Sequence record: PQ438391.1
Length of the DNA stretch: 64,000 nucleotides
Direction: 5' to 3' (one strand)
Source: Escherichia phage vB_Eco_T-01
Made by a program: the position numbers and the translations under genes. Numbering within the stretch: the stretch's first letter is position 1; each line of letters opens with the position of its first letter. The notes beneath the pieces were generated by a model. It made no database searches. It had not been told where the DNA came from and worked only from the letters and a program-made list of their open reading frames with translations. This document shows, piece by piece, positions 49,660-50,485 of the stretch.

Positions 49660-49923
49660 ATGAAATTTAAATTCTTTTATGTTAAACATAAAATCACAGG
49701 TGAATTTGTTTATGTACAATATTCTGAAATTGACGATGCAACATCATTTATTTCATTGGGATTGTCTAAATATGAATCAGATCAACCATATCTTACTGAT
49801 AAATTGCAACAAGAGCGTTTGTTGAATGGCGATTTAAACAATTCTTGGGAAGTTCTTATTTACGATGATTTAAAGAAAGCTATTAAAGAAAATAATCTTG
49901 AAATCATTGAGATTGAACTATGA
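49660..49923 (+). CDS. hypothetical protein
   Basis: 87 aa after promoter-leader cassette, GGAGGAAC RBS. Confidence 0.5.
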   Translation: MKFKFFYVKHKITGEFVYVQYSEIDDATSFISLGLSKYESDQPYLTDKLQQERLLNGDLNNSWEVLIYDDLKKAIKENNLEIIEIEL

Positions 49924-50108
49924 GTTCATTGTGGTGGTGTTTTGTTTGGTTAATTAGTATTCCAGTAATTTGTTTAACATTTACTTTTGTAATGAGGTTA
50001 TTATGAAAATTTTGAATTCTGTACTTATTGCTTGTGCATGGTGGGTTGCGCAAGTTTCGGCAGTCGTGATTGGTATTCACATTTATTACGAATATTTTTA
50101 AAAAAGTT

Positions 50109-50140
50109 GTTTACAAGACTGTTCTTCCGTGGTACTATTA
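50109..50140 (+). promoter_or_regulatory. T4-type early promoter (repeated promoter-leader cassette)
   Basis: GTTTACAAGACTGTTCTTCCGTGGTACTAT. Confidence 0.6.
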
Positions 50141-50166
50141 CCCTATCAACTACGGAGGAACAGAAA

Positions 50167-50280
50167 ATGAAAAAGATTATTAAAGCTATATGGAATGTAG
50201 TTATAATACTAATAGTTTTGAGTATATTCCCAATCGTTTTAATGATTGATGTATTAAACGCTTACTTTGGATTTATGTGA
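50167..50280 (+). CDS. hypothetical hydrophobic peptide
   Basis: 37 aa after promoter-leader cassette. Confidence 0.35.
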   Translation: MKKIIKAIWNVVIILIVLSIFPIVLMIDVLNAYFGFM

Positions 50281-50287
50281 GGAAAAT

Positions 50288-50485
50288 ATGAAGCGTAAAC
50301 GCAGTGCTTTTACATTTATTGAATGGTTTTTCGATAATATTTTTCCAGCTTTATTCATTTTCATGCTGATTTTTGCCTTAGGTTCAGTTGTAGTTGGAAT
50401 CTATTTGATGGCGGTAGTCGGAATGGATATTCATCAAAATGGTTTAAAATCTGTGGTTGAAACAATTTGGAATGGTGTAAAATGA
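50288..50485 (+). CDS. hypothetical membrane protein
   Basis: 65 aa; GAGGAAAAT RBS. Confidence 0.45.
   Translation: MKRKRSAFTFIEWFFDNIFPALFIFMLIFALGSVVVGIYLMAVVGMDIHQNGLKSVVETIWNGVK

Follow-up and report, generated by a model that had tools for sequence, protein, structure and literature searches.

Background

Bacteriophage T4 carries, between denB and ndd, a group of very short genes, ndd.2 to ndd.6, that have been annotated for decades, are recorded as 'hypothetical predicted membrane protein', have PHROG and Pfam families and are present in recent genome-wide screens. They count among the many early T4 genes without an assigned function, in what is the best-studied phage, and the products of ndd.1 to ndd.6 are given as unknown in Kutter 2018 (PMC6071114). 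Here we analyse the equivalent segment in a stretch of 64,000 nucleotides from Escherichia phage vB_Eco_T-01 (sequence record PQ438391.1), hereafter the window. A first-pass annotation of the window had singled out a cluster of tiny open reading frames (ORFs) for hydrophobic peptides between denB and ndd as candidate early membrane-targeting effectors, and we find this to be a correct observation on a feature that was already known. A literature search by gene name for ndd.2 to ndd.6 returned only papers on neurodevelopmental disorders, and nothing for ndd.2a.

Small hydrophobic proteins of several other kinds serve as points of comparison. AcrZ, MgrB, MgtS, KdpF and CydX are single-pass proteins of 30-50 amino acids that act by binding larger membrane proteins. 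The type I toxins Hok, TisB, Ibs, Ldr and ShoB are of a length and hydrophobicity comparable to those of the ndd peptides. The 51-residue T4 protein Ac, according to a proposal in a preprint, enters the inner membrane and blocks the AcrAB-TolC pump (bioRxiv 10.1101/2025.06.30.662393).

Identity and arrangement of the micro-ORFs

The window is that of a T4-like phage of the genus Tequatrovirus, oriented opposite to the conventional T4 map, and its closest match is Escherichia phage 132 (97.5%). Between denB and ndd we observed five ORFs in the order and on the strand of their T4 counterparts (NC_000866, T4p275 to T4p270: ndd.6, ndd.5, ndd.4, ndd.3/ndd.2a and ndd.2), with which they occupy a like position and share 92-100% amino acid identity. 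The block and its early promoters are arranged as follows.

49603-49656, + strand: early promoter and 5' untranslated region (UTR) cassette, copy 1, heading orf87, ndd.6 and ndd.5
49660-49923, + strand: orf87, a soluble variable cargo ORF of 87 amino acids (PHROG 2390), which T4 is without
49920-50006, + strand: ndd.6 orthologue, 28 amino acids, a near-bare transmembrane helix (MSSLWWCFVWLISIPVICLTFTFVMRLL)
50003-50101, + strand: ndd.5 orthologue, 32 amino acids, one hydrophobic span
50109-50162, + strand: early promoter and 5' UTR cassette, copy 2, heading ndd.4, the 65-residue ORF, ndd.2 and ndd.1
50167-50280, + strand: ndd.4 orthologue, 37 amino acids, N-terminal KK..K followed by a 20-residue hydrophobic span
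50288-50485, + strand: DUF7248 gene of 65 amino acids (T4 'ndd.3' plus 'ndd.2a')
50482-50592, + strand: ndd.2 orthologue, 36 amino acids, aromatic-rich, with zero charged residues
50601-50816, + strand: ndd.1 orthologue, 71 amino acids, acidic and soluble, the final gene of the second early unit

All five families were matched over their full length by profile hidden Markov models, with PHROG E-values from 1.6e-17 to 3.4e-30: ndd.6, which is 100% identical to T4 ndd.6, falls in PHROG 8851 (E 1.6e-17), ndd.5 in PHROG 5011 (E 3.9e-26), ndd.4 in PHROG 3098 (E 7e-21), the 65-residue protein in PHROG 2401 and ndd.2 in PHROG 4135 (E 6.2e-24). The 65-residue protein also matches Pfam PF23906 (DUF7248; E 4.4e-20, 71.9 bits against a cut-off of 27), and the peptides of 28, 32, 37 and 36 residues gave zero matches in our local copy of Pfam. 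The product of ndd.1 is a non-membrane protein, unlike the ndd.2 to ndd.6 peptides. The window differs from T4 in its extra 87-residue cargo ORF before ndd.6, and T4 ndd.4 is annotated from an upstream ATG made by a C-to-T change within the Shine-Dalgarno (SD) site.

The four peptides quoted in the first-pass annotation are present letter for letter and correspond to ndd.6, ndd.5, ndd.4 and the 65-residue protein. Its interval, 49921-50485, locates the cluster and starts one base late, as ndd.6 begins at 49920; its count of 'four to five' ORFs is right for four, while the fifth member, ndd.2, was missed just beyond the interval. The best explanation overall, mechanism included, is that the cluster is the Tequatrovirus block ndd.6-ndd.5-(promoter)-ndd.4-ndd.3/2a-ndd.2, consisting of five genuine protein-coding genes, and we regard this as probable.

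Evidence that the ORFs are coding

Head to tail, the five ORFs cover 99% of positions 49920-50592, a coverage that none of 2000 dinucleotide shuffles reached (mean 29%). Every one of them has a GAGG or GGAGGA SD site or an ATGA stop/start overlap; the overlaps join orf87 to ndd.6, ndd.6 to ndd.5 and the 65-residue ORF to ndd.2, and the SD of ndd.5 is GAGG. From a comparison of the window with 15 other Tequatrovirus loci, we obtained ratios of nonsynonymous to synonymous differences (pN/pS) of 0.08 for ndd.6, 0.08 for ndd.5, 0.085 for the 65-residue ORF and 0.22 for ndd.2, with denB (0.04) and ndd (0.10) as controls, and of about 0.5-1.9 in the two alternative frames where these were computable. 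The pooled variable sites fall at codon positions 1, 2 and 3 in the numbers 22, 13 and 53 (chi-square about 30, 2 degrees of freedom); third positions hold 9 of the 10 variable sites in ndd.5 and 25 of the 34 in the 65-residue ORF. Purifying selection is strong on four of the five ORFs; the fifth, ndd.4, is taken up below.

These results bear directly on whether the ORFs arose by chance, that is, whether the DNA between denB and ndd is T-rich spacer or regulatory sequence that has stayed open by accident and reads as hydrophobic since codons with T in second place specify F, L, I, M or V. The five ORFs do have 42-65% T at that position, and a scan of the whole window (35% GC and T-rich) for ATG-initiated ORFs of 25-70 amino acids found equally hydrophobic examples to be common: 23 on the + strand, 12 of them wholly and a 13th almost wholly out of frame within larger ORFs, and 8 on the non-coding strand. 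Because a T-rich genome yields such out-of-frame and opposite-strand ORFs, hydrophobicity alone is weak evidence, and we dropped the scan as an argument for coding. A 33-residue ORF at 42667, lying out of frame inside a 58-residue ORF with paired CxxC motifs, is probably spurious. Accidental reading frames would not, however, be expected to show pN/pS of 0.08-0.22 with an excess of third-position changes, conserved SD sites and coupling, tiling of the interval, or a frame that is preserved in about 490 genomes and in different genera. The chance explanation is contradicted here for four of the five ORFs, and on the strength of the tiling, the substitution pattern, the retention and the cross-genus homologues we reject it as barely credible. 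The five ORFs are almost certainly real coding genes.

Among Tequatroviruses, ndd.4 has diverged unusually little at synonymous sites, with a pS of 0.027 where the neighbouring genes have 0.13-0.19. We considered an overlapping RNA element or a recent sweep as the cause of this diversity trough and dropped both, the trough being modest (nucleotide diversity 0.017-0.019, against 0.02-0.08 nearby) and not unique.

Conservation across phages

The first-pass annotation had made its proposal depend on conservation of the ORFs in frame in related phages, and almost all of the 15 related loci carry them intact. Searches with tblastn matched 493 phage records for ndd.6, 493 for ndd.5, 500 for ndd.2 and 595 for ndd.4 (range over the peptides 493-595), from phages of Escherichia, Shigella, Yersinia, Salmonella, Citrobacter and Serratia. 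Of the five, ndd.4 has the widest distribution, about 100 of its records being less than 60% identical and coming from JS98/JS10-like (Dhakavirus-like) phages and from phages of Edwardsiella, Kosakonia and Enterobacter. Beyond Tequatrovirus, other Tevenvirinae conserve the block in part.

For the more distant relatives we relied on conserved motifs, since synonymous sites are saturated: the long-range dN/dS comparisons with Edwardsiella phage PEi20 and Salmonella phage CGG4-1 (pS 0.5-0.8, ratios 0.35-0.96) were uninformative and were discarded. Phage PEi20 (locus L011), whose denB is 45% identical, carries collinear homologues of ndd.6, ndd.4, ndd.2 and the 65-residue protein. Its ndd.4 keeps the motif KAIWN...IVL.IFPIVL.ID and 57% amino acid identity over the full length, its ndd.2 has the motif G.N.PYW.G in common with the window, and its 65-residue homologue has GLKSV.(E/D)TIWNG. 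Phage CGG4-1 (locus L009) retains ndd.6 directly before ndd, and the ndd.6 homologues of these two phages are 36-48% identical to that of the window. A deep homologue search with the 65-residue protein gave only 8 clusters, all of them T4-like, so that it was uninformative beyond the T4-like group.

Shigella phage Sf25 carries a natural in-frame fusion (P0007, 62 amino acids) in which the N-terminal portion of ndd.4 runs on into the C-terminal portion of the 65-residue protein, tagged with Pfam PF26889 and PF23906. Its existence shows that a phage can tolerate a deletion by which the two membrane micro-proteins become one. From the PF26889 tag on this fusion, newer Pfam releases may cover ndd.4.

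Deposited genomes (loci L012-L019 and others) annotate the block inconsistently, and several omit ndd.6, ndd.5, ndd.4 or ndd.2, in keeping with the earlier remark that short-ORF cut-offs miss such genes. Labels that have been propagated within the block include 'outer membrane protein', 'periplasmic protein' and 'chaperone for long tail fiber formation', and in phage N2 'naphthalene 1,2-dioxygenase' is attached to ndd.1. All four are at odds with the encoded products, and for the first two and the last our analysis turned up no experimental basis.

Membrane character and the 65-residue protein

As the criterion for a membrane span we used a hydrophobic stretch, 19 residues or longer, that scores high on the Kyte-Doolittle scale. 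The best 19-residue windows of ndd.6, ndd.5, ndd.4 and the 65-residue protein score 2.18-3.06, and the near-pure hydrophobicity ascribed to these four is evident from their grand average of hydropathy (GRAVY) values of 1.77, 1.26, 1.82 and 0.85, respectively. The hydrophobicity of ndd.2 is weaker (GRAVY 0.68, best 19-residue window 1.29). By inspection, the 65-residue protein, ndd.4 and ndd.5 have lysine/arginine-rich N-termini (MKRKRS, MKKIIK, MK), from which we predict insertion in the inner membrane with the N-terminus inside and the C-terminus outside. It is very likely that the micro-proteins are inserted in a membrane.

The 65-residue protein consists of an N-terminal MKRKRS, one transmembrane span and an invariant 15-residue C-terminal tail, NGLKSV.ET.WNG.K. 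AlphaFold models a short helix at residues 5-17 and one long helix at residues 19-64 (mean pLDDT 80.5). The first-pass annotation described it as a two-helix protein; as there is a single hydrophobic span (approximately residues 18-46), it is a single-pass protein and not a hairpin of two transmembrane segments.

In the T4 reference this gene appears as two. Relative to the window, NC_000866 (166432-166628) has one G fewer at codon 2 of the ORF, which results in an out-of-frame 26-residue 'ndd.3' and an internal-start 40-residue 'ndd.2a'; the 26-residue 'ndd.3' is a PHROG singleton in the CRISPRi-ART tables. The resequenced T4 genome OZ209023.1 (165382-165579) encodes an intact 65-residue protein identical to that of the window, and the T4 annotation used for HIDEN-SEQ, which gives ndd.3 as 82 nucleotides, points in this direction as well. 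T4 ndd.3/ndd.2a is one DUF7248 gene of 65 residues, the split being either a reference error or a strain variant, and the NC_000866 annotation is misleading on this point.

Early promoters and translational coupling

The repeated early promoter cassette reported in the first-pass annotation is a 54-nucleotide element that occurs exactly twice in the window (0 expected), and the ndd.4 start lies 5 nucleotides past the second copy. Copy 1 has a -35 element TTTACA at 49604-49609, an extended -10 element TGGTACTAT at 49624-49632 and the SD GGAGGA, and the 5' UTR of the cassette ends in GGAGGAACA. Both copies are of the T4 early promoter type (TTTACA, a 17-nucleotide spacer and an extended -10 TGGTAYTAT), with sites at 49604 and 50110 upstream of the ORFs on the same strand; a scan of the window for the shorter T4 early-promoter signature gave 11 sites where 0.27 would be expected, and all 11 are on the + strand. 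Copy 2 also matches the nrdC.8/nrdC.9 region of T4, where -35 and -10 signals are annotated.

Near-identical early promoters (TTTACAAGACTGTTCTTCC[A/G]TGGTACTAT) lie at 22412-22440 and 50110-50138, about 28 kb apart. The one at 22412 heads the unit of the imm.1 region, whose first gene is a signal-peptide-like ORF of 78 amino acids (PHROG 4189), and the two are potential substrates for recombination of the PeSL type.

The slot between the first promoter and ndd.6 (49596-49935) has four alternative contents across closely related phages, as seen by comparing the window with L003 (T4), L008, L012, L016 and L019: the 87-residue ORF (window and phage 132), an allele of it that is 52% identical, an unrelated ORF of 68 residues, or nothing (T4). 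The last approximately 27 nucleotides of the slot, ATGAAAATCG(C/T)TGAGATTGAACTATGA, are kept in every case, and the upstream frame always terminates on a TGA that overlaps the ATG of ndd.6, even when the cargo is swapped or deleted; in T4 that frame is a mini-ORF of 8 codons (MKIAEIEL) with its own GGAG site. That coupling is kept while the cargo changes argues that translation of ndd.6 matters.

One could conclude from the three ATGA overlaps and the tight packing that coupling is all there is, the ORFs being translated only to feed ribosomes to ndd.1 and ndd or to stabilise the early mRNA, with their peptide sequences irrelevant; the T4 mini-ORF clearly serves only coupling into ndd.6. However, purifying selection acts on the amino acid sequences of the micro-ORFs, specific motifs are kept between genera, and ndd has its own SD, 60 nucleotides after ndd.1. 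We therefore consider leader or coupling devices a very improbable account of the block.

A repeated early promoter flanking small variable ORFs is also the hallmark of PeSL cassettes (Arbiol 2010, Comeau 2014), and both copies match the published PeSL promoter consensus of PST/T4, TTTACW-N17-TAYWAT. Comeau 2014 (Fig. 6A) illustrates PeSL-mediated exchange with this very locus, comparing T4 ndd.4/.5 with ORF268/269 in phage PST. As for the stem-loop or terminator expected immediately before a PeSL promoter, copy 1 is preceded by a 5-bp hairpin at 49567-49583, and no convincing candidate was seen in the 8 nucleotides between the ndd.5 stop and copy 2. A difference from PeSL cassettes is that the micro-ORFs are almost invariant across Tequatrovirus, and only the cargo upstream of them varies.

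Expression, phenotype and possible role

In T4 transcriptomics the ndd.2 to ndd.6 RNAs are of the early class, and the ndd.1 protein was detected as early in T4 proteomics (Wolfram-Schauerte 2022, PMC9697503; RNA classes in Table S2). Of the description as early membrane peptides, what stands is that the genes are genuine, conserved, predicted to encode membrane spans and placed in early units; what does not is that they are a new discovery.

We propose the following mechanism, in which early transcription, translational coupling and one hydrophobic span per product are strongly supported and the steps that come after them are predicted. Host sigma-70 RNA polymerase transcribes the block from the two T4-type early promoters in the first minutes of infection, and translation begins at the ORFs' own SD sites or by termination-reinitiation at the ATGA overlaps. 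Each product (28-65 amino acids), having one hydrophobic span, would insert in the inner membrane as a single-pass protein, the 65-residue protein displaying its invariant tail in the periplasm. The micro-proteins would then bind and tune host inner-membrane proteins or lipid metabolism, as is proposed for Ac and as bacterial micro-proteins such as AcrZ do, and the envelope would be conditioned early in infection, with a benefit to the phage in nature that laboratory E. coli does not reveal. Specific binding is suggested because what is conserved is not hydrophobicity in general but particular W, P, C and N residues and a soluble tail, and a conditional benefit because loss is neutral in the laboratory and retention in nature is near-universal; given wide retention and purifying selection (four of the five ORFs) with no laboratory phenotype, the genes must matter under other conditions. 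That they modulate membrane proteins or lipids of the host, and are not pore-forming toxins, is a tentative proposal, which may well prove wrong.

Several observations weigh against this picture. The proteins were undetected by liquid chromatography-mass spectrometry in T4-infected cells (Wolfram-Schauerte 2022, PMC9697503), and that study attributes such misses to small size or low expression and cites ndd.4 (P39249, 5 kDa) as an example too small to detect. CRISPRi-ART knock-downs with dCas13d scored ndd.1 to ndd.6 all as 'Not Fit' (Adler 2025, supplement), and in the HIDEN-SEQ preprint transposon insertions in ndd.1 to ndd.6 were tolerated, all being 'Non-essential'; these published genome-wide T4 screens gave no fitness effect that would support the candidate effector role put forward in the first-pass annotation. 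A few copies carry frameshifts, in the T4 reference (65-residue ORF), L006 (ndd.6) and L017 (ndd.2), and ndd.2 of L016 is without its first residues. The pN/pS of ndd.4 is 0.78, a value uninformative in close relatives because it derives from only 8 variable sites, so that for this gene selection is suggested solely by conservation across genera. The topology, the insertion in the membrane and any target in the host are all inferences. Finally, the phenotype of the sa-delta-9 deletion, described below, is attributable to 3.4 kb with about 12 genes, not to the ndd.2 to ndd.6 ORFs as such.

The micro-proteins could instead be membrane-depolarising or pore-forming peptides that oligomerise in the inner membrane, as holins and type I toxins (Hok, TisB, Ibs, Ldr) do, in which case collapse of the proton-motive force would aid host shut-off. 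Their size (28-37 amino acids) and near-pure hydrophobicity resemble those of type I toxins. Many small T4 immediate-early genes are, moreover, host-lethal when cloned (Kutter 2018, PMC6071114). Against this, we found no Pfam match to the Hok, Ldr, TisB, Ibs or holin families at E <= 1, and a search of both strands of 48700-53400 against Rfam at E <= 1 gave no relevant family, antisense RNAs included, the only hit being a sub-threshold hairpin at 53193; such a search would not reveal an antisense RNA of a new kind. A holin would be expected to be expressed late and to adjoin an endolysin, and the early promoters, the early RNA class and the neighbours, denB and ndd, do not fit this. The genes are expressed early, when T4 still requires an energised host membrane; their loss has no measurable effect on infection; and the conserved W, P, C and N positions, with the invariant soluble tail of the 65-residue protein, suggest specific binding. 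We consider pore formation unlikely.

It is somewhat more conceivable, although still doubtful, that these small membrane proteins are conditional exclusion or counter-defence factors, useful only on particular hosts, which block the entry of superinfecting DNA (like Imm and Sp) or neutralise membrane-acting abortive infection systems (as rIIA/rIIB do against RexAB). The block lies in the hyperplastic accessory region from rIIB to stp/ac, where the characterised genes all concern host-specific interactions; the genes are universally retained in about 490 natural isolates and neutral on laboratory K-12 and B; and a like early promoter cassette heads the imm.1-imm block. However, there is no similarity to Imm, Sp or PADLOC families beyond a marginal match of ndd.4 to KwaA (E 0.012), which we took as hydrophobic noise and set aside, and a supplementary table of HIDEN-SEQ has, in one conditional comparison, no depletion of ndd.2 to ndd.6 (q = 1.0).

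The most interesting possibility is a link to lipid synthesis. The sa-delta-9 deletion, which removes 3.4 kb from 52.1 through denB, ndd.1 to ndd.6 included, leaves a 50% phage yield, but T4 then no longer stimulates the host to make phospholipid and phosphatidylglycerol (Kutter 2018, PMC6071114). This makes ndd.2 to ndd.6 some of the few candidates for the sa-delta-9 genes that stimulate phospholipid (phosphatidylglycerol) synthesis, a question raised in the same paper. That these genes, alone or as a membrane complex, are the determinants of T4's phosphatidylglycerol stimulation and of continued phospholipid synthesis after infection is a long shot; if true, the phage would be reprogramming the lipid metabolism of its host through a module of micro-proteins.

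Neighbouring genes and other small hydrophobic ORFs

Comparison with the annotated T4 reference identifies the genes on either side of the block, those downstream of ndd.1 following in the order ndd, stp, ac, 52.1, gene 52, motA.1 and motA. The upstream neighbours and the other small hydrophobic ORFs are these.

47785-48723: rIIB
48752-48946: denB.1
49029-49586: denB
51423-51581, + strand: ac, 52 amino acids here (51 in T4), about 0.8 kb downstream of the block
51574-51714, + strand: 52.1, 46 amino acids, DUF7396
53044-53193, + strand: motA.1 orthologue, a hydrophobic ORF of 49 amino acids after gene 52
23361-23510, + strand: hydrophobic ORF of 49 amino acids after imm, PHROG 3610

The similar micro-ORFs that had been noticed on either side of gene 52 are thus T4 52.1 and motA.1, and the one noticed after imm is likewise present. 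The ORF after imm has the SD GAGAAGGA and an ATGA overlap with the imm stop, and is intact in T4 (46 of 49 residues identical; NC_000866, about 26220-26372), where RefSeq leaves the 153-nucleotide gap unannotated. In phages 132 (L002, 3649-3804) and KNP5 (L013, 2719-2874) a second, diverged ac-like ORF, approximately 42% identical, lies between stp and ac. An ORF of 70 amino acids at 7137-7349, in a gap between larger ORFs (best 19-residue window 3.01, PHROG 1930), is a candidate small membrane protein of similar kind.

Significance and comparison with known systems

The additions made here to a known feature are modest: purifying selection has been quantified, retention found to be near-universal, the coupling into ndd.6 found to be conserved, and ndd.3/ndd.2a corrected to one gene.

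The nearest small proteins in position are T4 Ac and gp52.1 (DUF7396), early hydrophobic neighbours of a like size class that are deleted together with ndd.2 to ndd.6 in sa-delta-9. They differ from ndd.2 to ndd.6 in having no sequence similarity to them and in belonging to different PHROG families, and Ac has a selectable phenotype, whereas ndd.2 to ndd.6 have none so far. AcrZ, MgrB, MgtS, KdpF and CydX likewise have no homology to ndd.2 to ndd.6, which are phage-encoded and expressed early. The type I toxins, finally, are organised as toxin/antisense pairs, whereas ndd.2 to ndd.6 form a co-directional operon behind strong promoters.

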